Source of the DNA: Escherichia phage SD2
DNA length: 64,000 nucleotides
Sequence record: PQ821640
Reading direction: 5' to 3' (one strand)
The position numbers and the translations under genes were made by a program. Shown one piece after another: positions 10,089-13,525 of this stretch. Each line of letters begins with the position of its first letter. Position 1 is the stretch's first letter. A model generated the notes under the pieces. The model was given only the letters and a program-made list of their open reading frames with translations, was not told the origin of the DNA and ran no database searches.

Positions 10089-10164
10089 GGTTCCATAGCT
10101 CACTGACGAGAGCGCACACCTCATAAGTGTCGAGGGCAGGGATTGTAACCCTGGGGAACCACCA
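10089..10164 (+). tRNA. tRNA, anticodon CAT (Met or lysidine-Ile), non-canonical T-loop
   Basis: Manual cloverleaf: acceptor GGTTCC/GGAACC, D-stem GCTC/GAGC, anticodon loop CTCATAA, encoded CCA; T-loop reads ATTGTAA instead of TTCGAAT. Confidence 0.45.
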
Positions 10165-10195
10165 TTTAAAAGGAGATGCTATGCATCTCCTATAT

Positions 10196-10280
10196 GCAAG
10201 TGTGGTGGAATTGGTGATACACATTGTGCTTAAAACGCAACGCTTAAATGATTGAGGGTTCGAATCCCTCCACTTGCACC
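10196..10280 (+). tRNA. tRNA-Leu (anticodon TAA)
   Basis: Acceptor GCAAGTG/CACTTGC, anticodon loop CTTAAAA, long variable arm, T-loop GGTTCGAATCC, encoded CCA. Confidence 0.7.
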
Positions 10281-10421
10281 AACGCCTAGTAGGGTATTTG
10301 GTAATTCCGAGGCCATCAAAGCCTGAAAAATATGTTAGACCGCTTTGTCTAACTAAATACGAAATATGGTTCGATTCCATAACTAGGCTTCAATTTAAAT
10401 AATAATTTTAGTAAAAATATC

Positions 10422-10450
10422 TTGACATTCACTTAGTTTTTTTGTTATAG
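10422..10450 (+). promoter_or_regulatory. sigma70-like promoter (TTGACA-N17-TTATAG)
   Basis: Upstream of the tRNA-like element at 10463. Confidence 0.4.
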
Positions 10451-10462
10451 TTACTGTGAAAA

Positions 10463-10544
10463 CGGGGTGTATCTCACCTGACTTCTAATCAGGCGTTAAC
10501 CGAGTAATTGGAGTATGCAGGTTCGAATCCTGTCACCCCGACCA
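10463..10544 (+). tRNA. tRNA-like element, anticodon-type hairpin TCT, structure unresolved
   Basis: Canonical T-arm GCAGG-TTCGAAT-CCTGT, acceptor CGGGGTG/CACCCCG with CCA, perfect hairpin CCTGA-CTTCTAA-TCAGG, but no room for a D-arm and a 23-nt variable region. Confidence 0.3.
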
Positions 10545-10562
10545 AAAAGTTTTAAAAACTAC

Positions 10563-10591
10563 TTGACAAGCAAGATAGTTTTATGTTAGAT
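10563..10591 (+). promoter_or_regulatory. sigma70-like promoter (TTGACA-N17-TTAGAT)
   Basis: 16 nt upstream of tRNA-Ser start. Confidence 0.5.
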
Positions 10592-10607
10592 TTAAAGTAT
10601 AATAACG

Positions 10608-10697
10608 GGAAGGTAGGGCGCAGCGGTGCGCAACCAGGTTTGAACCCTGGCCCATTGTAGCGATACGGTGATGGTTCGACTCCATTATCTTCCTCCA
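10608..10697 (+). tRNA. tRNA-Ser (anticodon TGA)
   Basis: Acceptor GGAAGGT/ATCTTCC, anticodon stem CCAGG/CCTGG loop TTTGAAC, long variable arm, T-loop TTCGACT, CCA encoded. Confidence 0.7.
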
Positions 10698-10715
10698 AAT
10701 TCAACTAGGAGCTTT

Positions 10716-10868
10716 ATGAATTATAAAACTATTGGACAGGTTGTTACCGGAGTTAAGATTGTAGATAATAAAGTTGTTTATGAGTATTCTAATCTTCAAC
10801 AATCTGAAGATGGTAAAAATATTCGTATGGTAAAAGCAGAACAAAAAGATTACGGTTGTTTTGAATAA
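10716..10868 (+). CDS. hypothetical small protein (50 aa)
   Basis: ATG behind AGGAG; the longer ORF-track version (10668) would overlap tRNA-Ser. Confidence 0.35.
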   Translation: MNYKTIGQVVTGVKIVDNKVVYEYSNLQQSEDGKNIRMVKAEQKDYGCFE

Positions 10869-10875
10869 TTAAGAA

Positions 10876-10961
10876 CGGTAGATTGGTGAAATGGTAGCCA
10901 CAACAGTTTGCTAAACTGTCGTCGGAAACGGCGTGTAGGTTCAAGTCCTACATCTACCGCC
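10876..10961 (+). tRNA. tRNA-Ser (anticodon GCT)
   Basis: Acceptor GGTAGAT/ATCTACC, anticodon stem ACAGT/ACTGT loop TTGCTAA, long variable arm, T-loop TTCAAGT, CCA encoded. Confidence 0.7.
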
Positions 10962-11096
10962 AAGTTATCTTTAATGTAGCTTGTAATCTTACTTTAGCAG
11001 AGTAAATCTTCGGCAAGTGGCGGTAACCACTTTACCGATACCCTGATACTTCATAGTCAAGTGCCGCAAACACTGGCTATTTTAAAGATAATTTAT

Positions 11097-11172
11097 ACAT
11101 CGTTAGCTTAGTTGGTAGAGCAAGGGGCTTTTAACTCCAAGGTCGAAGGTTCGAATCCTTCACGATGTACCA
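11097..11172 (+). tRNA. tRNA-Lys (anticodon TTT)
   Basis: Perfect 7-bp acceptor ACATCGT/ACGATGT, D-arm GCTT-AGTTGGTA-GAGC, anticodon loop CTTTTAA, T-arm GAAGG-TTCGAAT-CCTTC, CCA encoded. Confidence 0.7.
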
Positions 11173-11177
11173 AACAC

Positions 11178-11264
11178 GTAGGTATCGCATAGCGGCAATT
11201 GCTGGAGACTGTAAATCTCCTGCCCTTCGGGGCTTCGTTGGTTCGAGTCCAACTACCTGCACCA
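11178..11264 (+). tRNA. tRNA-Tyr (anticodon GTA)
   Basis: Acceptor GTAGGTA/TACCTGC, anticodon stem GGAGA/TCTCC loop CTGTAAA, long variable arm, T-loop TTCGAGT, CCA encoded. Confidence 0.7.
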
Positions 11265-11271
11265 AATTAAA

Positions 11272-11868: not shown

Positions 11869-11882
11869 ATATCAAAAGCCTC

Positions 11883-11911
11883 TTGACAAAGGGGCTAATA
11901 ATATGTTAGAG
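11883..11911 (+). promoter_or_regulatory. sigma70-like promoter (TTGACA-N17-TTAGAG)
   Basis: 13 nt upstream of tRNA-Gly. Confidence 0.45.
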
Positions 11912-11923
11912 TAATATTGTTAA

Positions 11924-11998
11924 GCGGGTATAGTGTTAATGGTAGCATATGAGGTTTCCACCCTCCAGGTGCAGGTTCAAGTCCTGTTACTCGCTCCA
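11924..11998 (+). tRNA. tRNA-Gly (anticodon TCC)
   Basis: Acceptor GCGGGTA/TACTCGC, anticodon loop TTTCCAC, T-arm CAGG-TTCAAGT-CCTG, CCA encoded. Confidence 0.65.
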
Positions 11999-12428
11999 AG
12001 ATTATTTAAATGGAATCGCTAGAGAAAATTTCTCTTTTCGCTCATGGTTTTCTCCTTCAAACTCTAGCGGTTCTTTTTAAGTGATTTTTTAGTTTATTGG
12101 AGATTCACTGCCTTAGTGTGAGCTAAAATCGAGGAGCCATCGAACTGTCTGATTAATGATTTGCGAATCATTATAGTTTTAAGACCCCGGCAGTTTTATG
12201 GTGTACCTCTTGAATGTGAATGATGACGGGTTTATGGTTATCCTGGTCGTTAAATATCCAAAAACCTATGTTCCCCTTGAGGGCTTGCGCAGGCAATGCC
12301 AATAAGTCCTGCATTTTCATTTAAAAGAGAATTTATAATGGAAAAAGATGAACTTAAGTATGCTAAGCCTCTGGCTTCTGCTGCACGAAAAGCAGTTCGT
12401 CACTTTGTGGTAACACTGAAGTAATTTA

Positions 12429-12503
12429 TTGGAGATTAGCCTAGTGGGAAGGCAACGGCCTTTGAAGTCGTGATGACTAGGTTCGATTCCTAGATCTCCA
12501 GCC
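12429..12503 (+). tRNA. tRNA-Gln (anticodon TTG)
   Basis: Acceptor TGGAGAT/ATCTCCA with U1-A72 typical of enterobacterial tRNA-Gln, anticodon loop CTTTGAA, T-loop TTCGATT, CCA encoded. Confidence 0.7.
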
Positions 12504-12510
12504 AAGATTT

Positions 12511-12586
12511 ACAGTGCGTAGCGCAGTTGGTAGCGTGGGAGCCTTGGACGCTTCAGGTTGCAGGTTCGAGTCCTGCCGCACTGACC
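12511..12586 (+). tRNA. tRNA-Pro (anticodon TGG)
   Basis: Acceptor CAGTGCG/CGCACTG with C1-G72 typical of tRNA-Pro, anticodon loop CTTGGAC, T-loop TTCGAGT, CCA encoded. Confidence 0.7.
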
Positions 12587-12591
12587 AAATT

Positions 12592-12666
12592 TGCAGAGAT
12601 AGCTGAGACGGATTAGTGCTACCCTGAAAAGGTAGAAAGGATGGATCGTTACCATCTCTCTGCACC
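12592..12666 (+). tRNA. tRNA-Phe (anticodon GAA), atypical T-loop
   Basis: Acceptor GCAGAGA/TCTCTGC, anticodon stem CTACC/GGTAG loop CTGAAAA, T-arm GATGG-ATCGTTA-CCATC, CCA encoded. Confidence 0.55.
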
Positions 12667-12744
12667 AAATAACACCATCCAAGGAGTAGACTTGGTTAAC
12701 TGTCAATAGCACATTGAGGCTTCTTACAGTGGTGTACTTATTAT

Positions 12745-12829
12745 GGCTAAGTGGTGGAATGGTATACACGATACGCTTAGAACGTATTGCCCCAAGGGAT
12801 TGTGAGTTCGAGTCTCACCTTAGCTACCA
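12745..12829 (+). tRNA. tRNA-Leu (anticodon TAG)
   Basis: Acceptor GGCTAAG/CTTAGCT, anticodon stem ATACG/CGTAT loop CTTAGAA, long variable arm, T-loop TTCGAGT, CCA encoded. Confidence 0.65.
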
Positions 12830-12844
12830 AATTATTACAGATTG

Positions 12845-12923
12845 CGCGGGATAGAGGAGTCTGGTCGTCCTCGCCAGTTTCATATGCTGGAGATCATCGG
12901 TTCAAATCCAACTCCCGTTACCA
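12845..12923 (+). tRNA. tRNA with anticodon CAT, imperfect acceptor and T-stem
   Basis: Clean D-arm GAGG/CCTC and anticodon arm CCAGT-TTCATAT-GCTGG; T-loop TTCAAAT present but T-stem and acceptor pair poorly. Confidence 0.4.
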
Positions 12924-12942
12924 AATTTTGCAAGGAGATAAA

Positions 12943-13356
12943 GTGACAGCCAAGAAATCAGCCCAGTTGGGAATGAACGTAAGTACCGCTACGGGCAGGT
13001 TAACAAAAGATATAATGTGGCGACTGATAGTTCAGACAAACCAGAACATGTGCTTTCATTGCGGTAAAGAAATGACGAGAGAAGACTTCTCTATCGAGCA
13101 CAAAGTTCCTTGGTTGGATAGTGAAAACCCACAAGACTTATTTTTTGACTTGGACAATATTGCTTTCAGTCACTTATCCTGTAATGCTGCCGCAGCACGT
13201 AAGCCGAACAAAGGTATTATTCCTCATGGAACATCATCAGGATATGATACACACAAATGTAGGTGTGATGCATGCAAGGCAGCAAAAGCGGCAAGACGTA
13301 AAAAAGAATACACACCAGAAAAGCGCAGATCAACTTACGAGCGTACTGGTAAATAG
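12943..13356 (+). CDS. HNH homing endonuclease
   Basis: HNH core CFHCGKEMTREDFSIEHKVPW...N...H plus zinc-ligand cysteines; GTG 12943 behind AAGGAG (the ORF-track start 12787 would overlap two tRNAs). Confidence 0.7.
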   Translation: MTAKKSAQLGMNVSTATGRLTKDIMWRLIVQTNQNMCFHCGKEMTREDFSIEHKVPWLDSENPQDLFFDLDNIAFSHLSCNAAAARKPNKGIIPHGTSSGYDTHKCRCDACKAAKAARRKKEYTPEKRRSTYERTGK

Positions 13357-13369
13357 ATAATAGCCGGGT

Positions 13370-13444
13370 AGATTTAAAAGAGTATGGTACTCAATATGGC
13401 TCCAAACCATAGATCAAGGGGTTCGATTCCTCACCTTGCTGCCA
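13370..13444 (+). tRNA. tRNA-Trp-like (anticodon CCA), acceptor stem not formed
   Basis: Perfect anticodon arm TATGG-CTCCAAA-CCATA, T-loop GGTTCGATTCC, 3-prime CCA; the 5-prime strand cannot pair with the 3-prime acceptor strand. Confidence 0.35.
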
Positions 13445-13449
13445 ATTAT

Positions 13450-13525
13450 TGTGGTATCGTACAGATGGTTAGTACACTCGACCGATAATCGAGAAACAAC
13501 GGTTCGACTCCGTTTACCACGACCA
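13450..13525 (+). tRNA. tRNA-Ile (anticodon GAT)
   Basis: Acceptor TGTGGTA/TACCACG, D-arm GTAC-AGATGGTTA-GTAC, anticodon stem CTCGA/TCGAG loop CCGATAA, T-arm ACGG-TTCGACT-CCGT, CCA encoded. Confidence 0.55.

Follow-up and report, generated by a model that had tools for sequence, protein, structure and literature searches.

The closest described counterparts of the locus studied here, a dense array of tRNA genes at positions 10089-13525 of a 64,000-nucleotide stretch of DNA from Escherichia phage SD2 (sequence record PQ821640; hereafter, the window), are the tRNA islands of bacteriophages T5 and T4. In T5 (AY543070), the tRNA genes at 28-41 kb lie amid many promoters, small open reading frames (ORFs) and the HNH endonuclease genes hegA, hegC and hegD, and the record lists seven "stable RNAs with unknown functions," several of which are labeled tRNA-like. 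In T4 a compact cluster holds SegB, a homing endonuclease (PMC2330249), along with two stable RNAs of unsettled role, rnaC and rnaD (PMC3014915). The current textbook view of such islands in T5-like and T4-like phages combines codon supply with escape from tRNA-targeting defenses.

Two bodies of earlier work bear directly on this locus. AriB, of the PARIS defense system, cuts three E. coli tRNAs, those for Lys (UUU), Thr (UGU) and Asn (GUU), at 40/41; the three T5 versions together neutralize PARIS, and changes at positions 39 and 41 of tRNA-Lys block cleavage (PMC12409363). All known bacterial tRNAs were stated in 2024 to be canonical cloverleaves, and an engineered D-arm-less tRNA, "mini HisT," is accepted by E. 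coli HisRS, EF-Tu and ribosomes (PMC11551756).

In this study, we describe which genes the SD2 array holds, how they are conserved and covary, its motifs for promoters and a terminator, and its codon statistics, all observed directly in the DNA, and consider what the array is for. The whole is very probably best explained as the island of a phi92-like phage, with codon supply as its main role and a history of mosaic evolution. The standard-shape array is ordinary, but a few of its components, above all a tRNA-Arg(UCU) without a D-arm, are not.

Results and Discussion

The tRNA array and its relatives

ARAGORN, applied to the whole window, called 15 tRNA genes, all on the plus strand and within 10089-13525. 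Their anticodons (CAT twice, TAA, TAG, TGA, GCT, TTT, GTA, GTT, TGT, TCC, TTG, TGG, GAA and GAT) are those that an initial annotation, made from sequence alone, had listed. A covariance-model scan, one of the checks which that annotation had itself named, backs 13 of the 15 calls and one more: matches to the Rfam tRNA model RF00005 at or above its gathering threshold of 29 bits scored 33-69 bits (E-values down to 6.5e-13) for the 13, and 40 bits for a 16th element at 10463-10541, giving 14 in total. Below the threshold, or without a hit, were 10089-10164 (none), 10608-10697 and 13381-13441 (22.9 bits). The CCA end, reported earlier as encoded, is present in all 16 genes (the 15 ARAGORN genes and 10463-10544), and the three tRNA-like elements also reported exist, at 10463-10544, 11363-11441 and 13362-13444. 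A 7-nt anticodon loop with U33 and purine 37, a T-arm and a discriminator with 3' CCA are found throughout the cloverleaves, with ARAGORN structures for 15; the exceptions are the first CAU species (T-loop AUUGUAA) and tRNA-Phe (T-loop AUCGUUA), both without U54-U55-C56, and the tRNA-Arg(UCU), without a D-arm. The array and its signals are not attributable to chance. The genes of near-standard shape, apart from tRNA-Asn, are as follows.

10089-10164, plus strand: first tRNA with anticodon CAU; ARAGORN call, no Rfam match; T-loop and D-loop (no GG) non-canonical
10196-10281, plus strand: tRNA-Leu(UAA); ARAGORN call, Rfam 57.1 bits
10608-10697, plus strand: tRNA-Ser(UGA); ARAGORN call; 90 nt, 8-bp acceptor stem, U73
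10877-10962, plus strand: tRNA-Ser(GCU); ARAGORN call, Rfam 54.2 bits
11097-11172, plus strand: tRNA-Lys(UUU); ARAGORN call, Rfam 68.9 bits
11178-11264, plus strand: tRNA-Tyr(GUA); Rfam 48.1 bits; class II, which is normal for bacteria
11447-11521, plus strand: tRNA-Thr(UGU); ARAGORN call, Rfam 56.6 bits
11924-11998, plus strand: tRNA-Gly(UCC); ARAGORN call, Rfam 55.1 bits
12430-12504, plus strand: tRNA-Gln(UUG); ARAGORN call, Rfam 61.4 bits
12512-12587, plus strand: tRNA-Pro(UGG); ARAGORN call, Rfam 65.5 bits
12593-12667, plus strand: tRNA-Phe(GAA); Rfam 49.2 bits; T-loop non-canonical; flagged as a pseudogene in the phi92 record
12745-12829, plus strand: tRNA-Leu(UAG); ARAGORN call, Rfam 58 bits
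12845-12923, plus strand: second tRNA with anticodon CAU, initiator-like; ARAGORN call, Rfam 33.2 bits
13450-13525, plus strand: tRNA-Ile(GAU); ARAGORN call, Rfam 57.3 bits

Escherichia phage vB_vPM_PD06 matches the region at 99.4% identity, and phi92 (FR775895.2) and muut match it at 97.4%; these relatives belong to the genus Justusliebigvirus of the subfamily Stephanstirmvirinae; across the published genomes the identity is 97-99.4%. The GenBank records of phi92 and muut annotate the same 15 tRNAs in the same order, and the flanks are alike, with a nicotinamide/nicotinate phosphoribosyltransferase gene upstream and the large terminase gene downstream. Synteny together with nucleotide identity of at least 95%, the mark of a Justusliebigvirus tRNA cluster, is what was found, and the window is the tRNA island of a phi92-like virulent coliphage. 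Because the phi92 and muut records carry the same tRNAs, the array itself is already known; it is annotated in phi92-group genomes that have been public for years. The initial annotation left this out, together with the conserved non-canonical RNA families and the T-even and endonuclease inserts described below.

Like the islands of T5 and T4, the locus combines tRNAs on one strand with promoters, small ORFs, a homing endonuclease and non-tRNA stable RNAs. T5 differs in belonging to the family Demerecviridae and in having 24 tRNAs. Gains and losses of elements also separate the nearer relatives from the window. Compared with phi92 and muut, the window has an HNH endonuclease gene in common only with Salmonella phage UAB_1, and an RNA resembling T5 RNA3 that is of the Phapecoctavirus type rather than the phi92/muut type; a 113-nt element at 10283-10395 is present here and absent from phi92. 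The D-arm-less tRNA-Arg, the RNA3-like RNA and a tRNA-Trp-like gene are unannotated in the public Justusliebigvirus records. Single tRNAs have affinities farther afield: tRNA-Pro is 94% identical to a gene of a 106-kb Salmonella phage, and tRNA-Thr 94-96% identical to a gene of ~88-kb enterobacterial phages (Moogle, UAB_Phi87). Judged by such comparisons, the island is a fast-changing mosaic whose single tRNAs are common to T5-like and other enterobacterial phages.

Two further observations concern records and neighbors. Several UNVERIFIED GenBank "Campylobacter phage" records (MG0656xx; A150, A145, C3, A110a) are 97% identical to the present group of E. coli phages and classified as Justusliebigvirus; their Campylobacter host label is probably wrong. 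Directly upstream of the island, at 6643-9341 (plus strand), lie a PRPP-synthetase-like gene and the nicotinamide/nicotinate phosphoribosyltransferase gene, an NAD salvage pair.

Codon usage and the role of the island

The initial annotation had called for a comparison of phage codon usage with tRNA supply. Set against an E. coli K-12 usage table, the 16,128 codons of 39 long ORFs of the window show that the cognate codons of the phage tRNAs are over-represented. The phage/E. coli ratio is 5.1 for AGA, 4.6 for ACA, 2.7 for CTA, 2.0 for CCA and for GGA, 1.6 for TCA, 1.5 for TTA and for CAA, and 1.3 for AAA, so that each A-ending codon with a U34 phage tRNA as its Watson-Crick partner is commoner in the phage than in E. 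coli; ATA stands at 2.05 and TAT, AAT and AGT at 1.8-1.9. This is the classical codon-compensation pattern. The island would top up host tRNAs for codons much more frequent in the A+T-rich phage than in E. coli, namely AGA, ACA, CUA, AUA, CCA and GGA plus the U-ending Tyr, Asn and Ser codons. The heavy investment in translation suggested earlier is consistent with these data and with the T5 tRNA work (PMC12409363).

Several observations weigh against our explanation of the island. The G34 species tRNA-Ile(GAU) and tRNA-Ser(GCU) are cognate to ATC and AGC, which are depleted in the phage (0.57 and 0.33), so that supply matches demand only via wobble reading, and the codon data come from the ORFs of one 64-kb window and one E. 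coli table. The shapes of the first CAU species and tRNA-Phe (non-UUC T-loops), of the second CAU species (33 bits) and of the Trp-like gene (22.9 bits) are non-canonical, and these deviant members may be poorly functional or in other roles. The element at 10283-10395 is dispensable, since phi92 lacks it. Finally, the tRNA-Asn site U36-A-A-U-C-C41 is the host AriB site (cut UAAUC/C), and resistance of this tRNA, if any, would need another mechanism.

The island might instead offset the loss of host tRNAs through shut-off and degradation of host DNA and RNA, sustaining late translation regardless of codon bias. Breakdown of host nucleic acids is typical of large virulent phages in this size class, promoters of the host sigma-70 type would have the tRNAs made from the start of infection, and 13-15 amino acids are covered. 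However, the set is unbalanced, with no tRNA for Ala, Val, Asp, Glu, His or Cys and no well-formed tRNA-Trp; it is biased to readers of A/U-ending codons; and no host-tRNA-degrading activity has been shown for anything in the window. We regard this explanation as unlikely.

Codon supply, the role we prefer, also accommodates the first CAU species. It is 69% identical to T5 tRNA-Ile2(CAU), as against 55-56% to T5 tRNA-Met and tRNA-fMet, and is probably an AUA decoder, which fits the excess of ATA in phage genes. The second CAU species has a large D-arm and an anticodon stem without GGG/CCC, and is 92-94% identical across genera. Its 1:72 mismatch is kept in three lineages with different bases (C-U here, A-C and U-C in relatives) and its anticodon stem has compensatory changes; the nearest T5 tRNA is annotated as fMet (66%). 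These features point to an initiator-type tRNA. T5 Ile2 and fMet are in this way the T5 genes closest to the two CAU species, and T5 tRNA-Thr has the same acceptor stem as its counterpart here and a near-identical anticodon arm. The tRNA-Ser(UGA) at 10608, which was missed by RF00005 and reached 35.3 bits with the tRNA-Sec model (cut-off 47), is closest to T5-like tRNA-Ser (82-87% identical). A tRNA-Ser of 8/4 type has been reported from phages (PMC5389517), and tRNA-Ser(UGA) looks like that type.

A tRNA-Arg(UCU) gene without a D-arm

10463-10544, plus strand: non-canonical tRNA-Arg(UCU); Rfam tRNA model 40 bits (10463-10541); missed by ARAGORN

The 5' part of this element consists of one strand of a 7-bp acceptor stem, UAU, CUC, A and the anticodon arm (loop CUUCUAA); the 3' part, of CGUUAACC, GAG, UAAUUGGAGUAU, the T-arm, A73 and CCA. 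The acceptor and anticodon stems are just 7 nt apart (UAUCUCA), leaving no D-stem-loop, and between the anticodon arm and the T-arm there are 24 nt, CGUUAACCGAGUAAUUGGAGUAUG. The family extends through Felixounavirus, Justusliebigvirus, Mydovirus, Asteriusvirus and dozens of uncultivated phages: full-length homologues, 83-87% identical, were found in Felixounavirus, in the 378-kb jumbo phage Asteriusvirus and in Mydovirus, 210 GenBank phage records align over at least 80% of the query, and pattern scans of IMG/VR place the scaffold in at least 50 contigs of 8-360 kb. The element is annotated in none of the GenBank records checked.

Although the anticodon loop was left free in the search pattern, the anticodon is UCU in 54 of 55 copies and CCU in the other one. 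Over 33 distinct sequences, pairing holds in 99.4% of the cells of the scaffold, and compensatory changes affect 15 of the 20 pairs, including 6 of the 7 acceptor-stem pairs, all 5 anticodon-stem pairs and 3 of the 5 T-stem pairs. The element has what defines a D-arm-lacking tRNA, in that there is no D hairpin and the acceptor, anticodon and T helices are kept by covariation. A core of 8 nt plus 24 nt (32 nt), with the D-loop-like UUGGAGUA, is invariant. When its invariant triplets were freed in the pattern, the only variant recovered was CGC...GCG in place of CUC...GAG, in two otherwise different sequences; the swap suggests a 3-bp CUC/GAG long-range helix that would lengthen the anticodon arm, a model based on these two covarying sequences. 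The segment UAANYGGAGUAU, which is like the ...UUGGAUA of the tRNA-Arg D-loop, would then be left free to reach the T-loop, replacing the variable loop. A local hairpin proposed by ViennaRNA in the variable region (CCGA-GUAA-UUGG) was set aside in favor of CUC/GAG, as its A-N pair is not kept across the family.

The D-arm-less element fills the Arg-UCU (AGA) slot of phage tRNA arrays. At 52 of 57 scanned loci, some with as many as 26 tRNAs in the array, the ARAGORN calls included no separate canonical Arg-UCU/CCU tRNA; one more locus had the element itself as its only such call, two were too short to inform, and the single CCU copy adjoins a canonical UCU gene. In SD2 a near-consensus promoter of its own precedes the gene, and no codon exceeds AGA in over-use relative to E. 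coli. In its acceptor stem the element is similar to the canonical tRNA-Arg(UCU) of Seunavirus SSE121. For E. coli ArgRS the identity set is C35 and U/G36, with A20 of the D-loop. All 55 copies have C35 and U36; a D-loop is lacking, but UUGGAGUA has GG followed by A, comparable to the canonical ...UGGAUA....

Metazoan mitochondrial (mt) tRNA-Ser(AGY) and mini HisT likewise have acceptor, anticodon and T arms and no D-arm hairpin. Unlike them, the Arg element is natural and phage-encoded and would, if functional, serve the bacterial cytoplasmic machinery; it also has an invariant core, a probable CUC/GAG helix and Arg AGR anticodons only. The tRNA-Arg of T5, in contrast, is annotated at an ordinary 75 nt. 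No report of a D-arm-less tRNA in phages was found in the literature searched, which excluded most subscription journals and is not proof of absence. We propose, tentatively and with slightly more doubt than conviction, that the Arg element may be the founding natural D-arm-less tRNA in bacterial cytoplasmic translation, and that the extra arm of the tRNA-Asn described next may be its companion and could shield the 40/41 site of AriB.

A class II tRNA-Asn(GUU)

11272-11356, plus strand: class II tRNA-Asn(GUU), 85 nt; ARAGORN call, Rfam 56.5 bits

This gene has the anticodon arm of E. coli asnT unchanged, CGGACUGUUAAUCCG, and G73 as its discriminator. For E. coli AsnRS, Asn identity lies in the anticodon G34-U35-U36 plus G73 (PMC9976931), and both elements are present in the window gene. 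Its shape is unusual, with a 3-bp D-stem of class II type and an extra variable arm, GAAC-GAAA-GUUC. The 3-bp D-stem and paired extra arm are shared with the class II bacterial tRNAs (Ser, Leu, Tyr), whereas the anticodon and discriminator are those of tRNA-Asn. T5 tRNA-Asn, in contrast, is class I (78 nt) and has anticodon-stem changes, where the window gene has a host-like stem and the extra arm.

The same design occurs in 154 GenBank phage records. A search pattern that specified only the anticodon arm and UG-NNN-GAAA, leaving the 3' strand of the extra stem unconstrained, matched 25 IMG/VR contigs, and the extra arm was present in all 25; they include contigs of T4-like size (165-175 kb), T5-like phages, Seunavirus, Stephanstirmvirinae and contigs of 190-247 kb. 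The form of the arm is fixed as a G-NNN-GAAA-NNN-C hairpin, and over 16 distinct sequences its stem is paired in 98% of cells, with compensatory changes in 3 of 4 pairs. With the same pattern no class II tRNA-Asn was found in 185,579 bacterial and archaeal genomes (one per species); the eight matches, one an ordinary 74-nt tRNA-Asn and seven non-tRNA, were treated as chance. None was found by blastn in 5,426 complete E. coli genomes, prophages included, and no published description was found in the literature searched, most subscription journals lying outside it.

A class II tRNA with anticodon GUU could conceivably be charged with Ser by SerRS and insert Ser at Asn codons as deliberate mistranslation. 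Ser identity depends mainly on the long variable arm and G73, whatever the anticodon (PMC9976931), the window tRNA looks like tRNA-Ser in its D-arm and variable arm, and T4-like and T5-like versions have G1-C72, G2-C71 and G73. The window copy itself has the long arm (4-bp stem), G73 and G1-C72, but its 2-71 pair is A-U, not G-C; the 4-bp extra stem is shorter than the arms of E. coli tRNA-Ser (serU); and the anticodon arm of E. coli tRNA-Asn with G73 completes the known Asn identity set. In several viral versions, moreover, this same arm goes together with a class I-type D-arm and the tRNA-Asn acceptor of bacteria (UCC...GGA-G), which argues that an Asn tRNA gained the arm and not that a Ser tRNA changed its anticodon. 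Mischarging by SerRS is very improbable.

The arm of what we take to be a genuine Asn acceptor emerges 3-4 nt 3' of the AriB scissile bond. We conjecture that it may shield the tRNA from AriB, leaving the Asn identity elements untouched.

Possible counter-defense and RNA repair

The conjecture belongs to a broader reading in which the island serves mainly for counter-defense, supplying resistant replacements or decoys for tRNAs cut by PARIS AriB, PrrC, retron-linked and colicin-type tRNases, and in which the odd shapes (the Asn arm, the Arg without D-arm, the altered T-loops) are escape variants. The PARIS targets Lys, Asn and Thr lie within one 425-nt stretch, and their T5 homologues rescue infection (PMC12409363). 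On the 3' side of the tRNA-Lys anticodon stem the window has U36-A-A-C39-U40-C41 where E. coli has U36-A-A-U-C-A41 (PMC12409363), so that C39 and C41 stand at the AriB-blocking positions; the tRNA-Thr site, U36-A-A-G39-C-A41, is the same as in T5 tRNA-Thr and unlike the host. The tRNA-Asn, whose anticodon arm is host-identical, has its extra arm next to the AriB bond, structural oddities are kept across unrelated phage families, and an RNA-repair cassette lies nearby.

1858-3748, minus strand: RNA-repair-like cassette of three adjacent genes, ~7 kb upstream of the island
1858-2262, minus strand: P-loop kinase; Pfam AAA_33; PHROG polynucleotide kinase, E 5.8e-9
2263-3195, minus strand: Rnl1-type RNA ligase; PF09511, E 2.6e-13; PHROG 562, E 9e-68
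3197-3748, minus strand: calcineurin-type phosphoesterase; Pfam 22 bits, below the threshold of 27

The cassette bears out the RNA-repair-like genes of the initial annotation, and its kinase, ligase and phosphoesterase would together repair cut tRNAs. Compared with the T4 repair system (Pnkp plus Rnl1), the third gene encodes a phosphoesterase and not the phosphatase domain of T4 Pnkp, and the predicted activities reside on separate proteins. An ATP-dependent DNA ligase is encoded at 1-1164.

Nevertheless, the whole anticodon set tracks the codon bias of the phage, most members (Gly, Pro, Gln, Leu, Phe, Ile) face no known nuclease, the block to AriB by the extra arm is our own conjecture, and the codon-supply and defense roles are not mutually exclusive. 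Nuclease resistance of the window tRNAs is at this point a prediction from their sequences, and counter-defense as the main role seems to us possible though somewhat less likely than not.

The initial annotation also linked the island to a CCA-enzyme-like protein. The ORF concerned (55191-55805, 204 aa) matches a generic PHROG "nucleotidyltransferase" family (E 5.8e-34), but its identity as a CCA-adding enzyme is weakly supported: Pfam PolyA_pol scores 19 bits against a cut-off of 23, and CCA-adding enzymes in the PDB match at E 0.86. A CCA-adding enzyme of the usual build (class II nucleotidyltransferase head, neck and body, ~400 aa) was not supported by Pfam, NCBIfam or PDB sequence searches.

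Other tRNA-like and structured RNAs

10283-10395, plus strand: 113-nt tRNA-like RNA; fold z = -2.66
10963-11096, plus strand: 134-nt structured spacer; 11-bp closing stem; fold z = -3.57
11363-11441, plus strand: RNA3-like RNA; fold z = -3.01; ARAGORN call at a relaxed threshold only
11999-12093, plus strand: 95-nt long imperfect hairpin; fold z = -4.54
13362-13444, plus strand: tRNA-Trp(CCA)-like gene; Rfam 22.9 bits (cut-off 29); ARAGORN call at a relaxed threshold
13526-13638, plus strand: conserved 3'-terminal non-tRNA segment; ~92% identical to Phapecoctavirus

The element at 11363-11441 is, on alignment, a homologue of T5 RNA3 (local alignment z = 10.8), with which it shares UGUAGAGUUAAG(G)UAAACC and AUCGAAU. 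T5 RNA3 lies directly 3' of tRNA-Asn, starting 2 nt after it; the element here starts 7 nt after tRNA-Asn. It has an acceptor-like stem and an 8-nt T-loop (UAUCGAAU), and no 7-nt anticodon loop. T5 RNA3 ends in CCA (...CACAGA-UACCA), whereas the window element (...CGAGUCC-AAUUAUU) does not. Because of the 8-nt T-loop and the lack of a normal anticodon loop and of CCA, it is probably not a decoder. It is 98.8% identical to Phapecoctavirus, where the adjacent tRNA-Asn is 75.6% identical; conservation so far above that of neighboring tRNAs indicates selection on some function. In the variant of phi92 and muut, both the acceptor-like stem and the T-stem contain compensatory changes. Among T4 rnaC and rnaD and T5 RNA1, 2, I, III, IV and 2H, none proved to be a homologue; only RNA3 matches. 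A match of the Arg element to T5 RNA2 comprised the shared T-arm only.

In five contigs of 165-175 kb, UAAGUCGUCGG, a sequence also found in T4 rnaD, lies directly 3' of the class II tRNA-Asn. This hints that an rnaD-like RNA accompanies tRNA-Asn in those contigs, as RNA3 does in T5 and here.

The 113-nt RNA has a 7-bp acceptor-like stem, a canonical T-arm (AUGGUUCGAUUCCAU) and a long extra hairpin, and lacks CCA and U33. Its architecture is that of T4 rnaC and of T5 RNA1 and RNA2; the rnaC fold is likewise an oversized tRNA-like one with a T-arm and a long extra hairpin. Alignment found no sequence similarity of the array to T4 rnaC or rnaD. The Trp-like gene has an 8-bp acceptor stem with one C-U mismatch, a D-hairpin with a 3-nt UGG loop, the anticodon loop CUCCAAA, G73 and CCA; in Seunavirus and in two further viral contigs, compensatory changes preserve its helices.

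The elements at 10463-10544, 11363-11441, 13362-13444 and 10283-10395 might be thought functionless, as decaying pseudogenes or RNase P punctuation: ARAGORN at default settings misses all four, two fall below the Rfam threshold, phi92 lacks 10283-10395, and a truncated Tyr remnant in Phapecoctavirus means that decay does occur in such arrays. Their conservation runs the other way. The Arg element has 99% pairing, compensatory changes in 15 of 20 pairs, an invariant 32-nt core and UCU/CCU in 55 of 55 copies; the RNA3-like RNA has its identity of 98.8% against 75.6% for tRNA-Asn, its compensatory changes in phi92 and its T5 homologue; and the Trp-like helices persist through compensatory changes in Seunavirus. 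Decay to functionless remnants is improbable for the group, although 10283-10395 may be a pseudogene. Several of the "imperfect" members instead seem to be conserved non-canonical RNA families, not debris, unannotated and, as far as was searched, undescribed.

The spacer at 10963-11096 is partly conserved in Phapecoctavirus and ~81% identical to anhysbys over 10877-11095; the hairpin at 11999-12093 is kept after tRNA-Gly in Klebsiella and Phapecoctavirus relatives (82-84% identity); and the segment at 13526-13638 has no strong structure (fold z = -0.86). Matches to non-tRNA Rfam families within 9500-14500 (E up to 10) were at chance level only (Plastid-ycf2 antisense of tRNAs, RyhB at the terminator).

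Promoters, terminator and likely transcription units

9755-9784, plus strand: promoter P1; TTGACA-N18-TAAGAT, TG-extended, 10/12 matches
10422-10451, plus strand: promoter P2; TTGACA-N18-TATAGT, TG-extended, 11/12 matches; ~12 nt upstream of the D-arm-less tRNA
10563-10592, plus strand: promoter P3; TTGACA-N18-TAGATT, TG-extended, 10/12 matches
11883-11912, plus strand: promoter P4; TTGACA-N18-TAGAGT, TG-extended, 10/12 matches
13639-13667, plus strand: intrinsic terminator; hairpin 13639-13657, AGCCTCC-TTATT-GGAGGCT, then TTTTTGCTATT
9815-10081, plus strand: 88-aa ORF, phi92 gp110 homologue, PHROG 15056; stop codon 7 nt before the first tRNA
10716-10868, plus strand: 50-aa ORF, phi92 gp111 homologue, PHROG 22441
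11545-11868, plus strand: 107-aa ORF, phi92 gp112 homologue, PHROG 8792; motif HCSCYGLE-QW-PE

The best plus-strand sites in a sigma-70 scan were 10422 (11 of 12 matches) and 9755, 10563 and 11883 (10 of 12 each), and in every one the -10 element is TG-extended. The three promoters of the initial annotation (10422, 10563, 11883) and its terminator (13639) are thereby confirmed in position. The motif TTGACA-N14-16-TGNTANRNT occurs 7 times in 64 kb, against an expected 0.24, and 4 of the 7 copies fall within 9755-11912. In Phapecoctavirus the -35, TG and -10 elements of P3 are kept and the spacer varies. The other three copies of the motif, outside the array, are at 191-219 (minus strand), 17130-17159 (plus strand) and 29319-29348 (plus strand), one of them before the portal gene region.

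Expression and processing of the island, and aminoacylation of its products, are predicted here, the transcription units from motifs only. The unit from 9755 would comprise the gp110 ORF, the first CAU species, tRNA-Leu(UAA) and the 113-nt RNA, and that from 10422 tRNA-Arg(UCU). The unit from 10563 would run through tRNA-Ser(UGA), an ORF, tRNA-Ser(GCU), the structured spacer, tRNA-Lys, tRNA-Tyr, tRNA-Asn, the RNA3-like RNA, tRNA-Thr and gp112. The unit from 11883 would begin with tRNA-Gly, the hairpin, the T-even element with its mini-ORF, tRNA-Gln, tRNA-Pro and tRNA-Phe, and continue through tRNA-Leu(UAG), the second CAU species, the HNH gene, the Trp-like gene, tRNA-Ile and the conserved tail to the terminator at 13639. 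A terminator scan of the array found no terminator-like site between units, and read-through is therefore likely. Transcribed by host RNA polymerase, the island would yield overlapping polycistronic precursors, from which host RNase P and 3' processing enzymes would release mature RNAs whose CCA ends are already encoded. The expected products are 15 near-standard tRNAs, the D-arm-less tRNA-Arg(UCU) and probably an aberrant tRNA-Trp(CCA), along with putative non-decoding RNAs: the T5 RNA3 homologue, the 113-nt rnaC-shaped element and a T-even-derived structured RNA.

A perfect 9-bp hairpin, AGGAGATGC-TA-GCATCTCCT, at 10170-10192 between the first CAU species and tRNA-Leu(UAA), has no U-tract and may be a processing site. 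In a T5-like phage of Proteus, a 49%-identical homologue of gp112 abuts the class II tRNA-Asn. A general partnership of gp112 with that tRNA was rejected: homologues are limited to Justusliebigvirus and Proteus Novosibvirus loci, and it is unrelated to T5.067.

An inserted T-even element and a homing endonuclease

12094-12340, plus strand: T-even-derived non-coding element, the rIII/30.9 intergenic region of T4-like phages
12338-12424, plus strand: 28-aa chimeric ORF; PHROG 1457 (RIII), positions 60-86 of 86, E 7.6e-12
12943-13356, plus strand: free-standing HNH homing endonuclease gene, 137 aa; Pfam HNH, E 4.3e-5; PHROG 23251, E 8e-51

The T-even element is 100% identical to the T4-like phage AR1 and 98.4% identical to T4, so that the T4-derived DNA here comes from a different T4 locus, rIII-30.9, and not from the tRNA cluster. 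It contains two conserved structured domains, with a terminator-like hairpin just before the 30.9 start. Across T-even genera the element is 92-96% conserved, as against 85-87% for rIII and 76-91% for 30.9. The first domain is a long hairpin with 5 compensatory pairs (14 distinct sequences), and a variable site carries inserts of 0, ~45 or ~190 nt. Structure on the sense strand is indicated by this covariation and not by folding energy (z = -1.65); structure on the antisense strand was rejected, being no better than shuffled (z = -0.74). With no Rfam match for it within 9500-14500 (E up to 10), the element looks like an undescribed structured leader or small RNA.

In the chimeric ORF, the T-even 30.9 ribosome-binding site and ATG are fused in frame to the last 27 codons of rIII. 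RIII reportedly binds holin and the ribosomal protein S1. A 13-bp direct repeat, TTTATTGGAGATT, bounds the insert: one copy lies where 12094-12340 begins, and the other, at ~12424-12437, is the native 5' flank and start of tRNA-Gln. We infer that a circular or tandemly duplicated T-even fragment integrated by recombination at TTTATTGGAGATT. The phi92-like phage C3 carries a T2-type variant of the element, which indicates continuing exchange with T-even phages.

The HNH gene sits between the initiator-like tRNA and the Trp-like gene, where it replaces a ~55 bp spacer of phi92 and muut. Among 50,697 phage records, the gene occurs at this site elsewhere only in Salmonella phage UAB_1 (97.8%); other homologues, ~50% identical, are in ~85-90-kb enterobacterial phages (Escherichia, Salmonella) and in Pseudomonas phages. 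The gene parallels SegB in T4 and the heg genes in T5, although the T4 endonuclease is of the GIY-YIG type.

Implications

In T-even phages, an intergenic RNA turns out to be more conserved than the genes that flank it. The phage-specific extra arm of tRNA-Asn would represent an escape route from anticodon-stem nucleases unlike the point mutations of T5. The tRNA-Arg(UCU) marks an annotation gap, a widespread phage tRNA missed by standard tRNA finders and by public annotations. If charged and used, it would be a natural counter-example to the rule that bacterial ribosomes use cloverleaf tRNAs only, and a ready scaffold for tRNA engineering.

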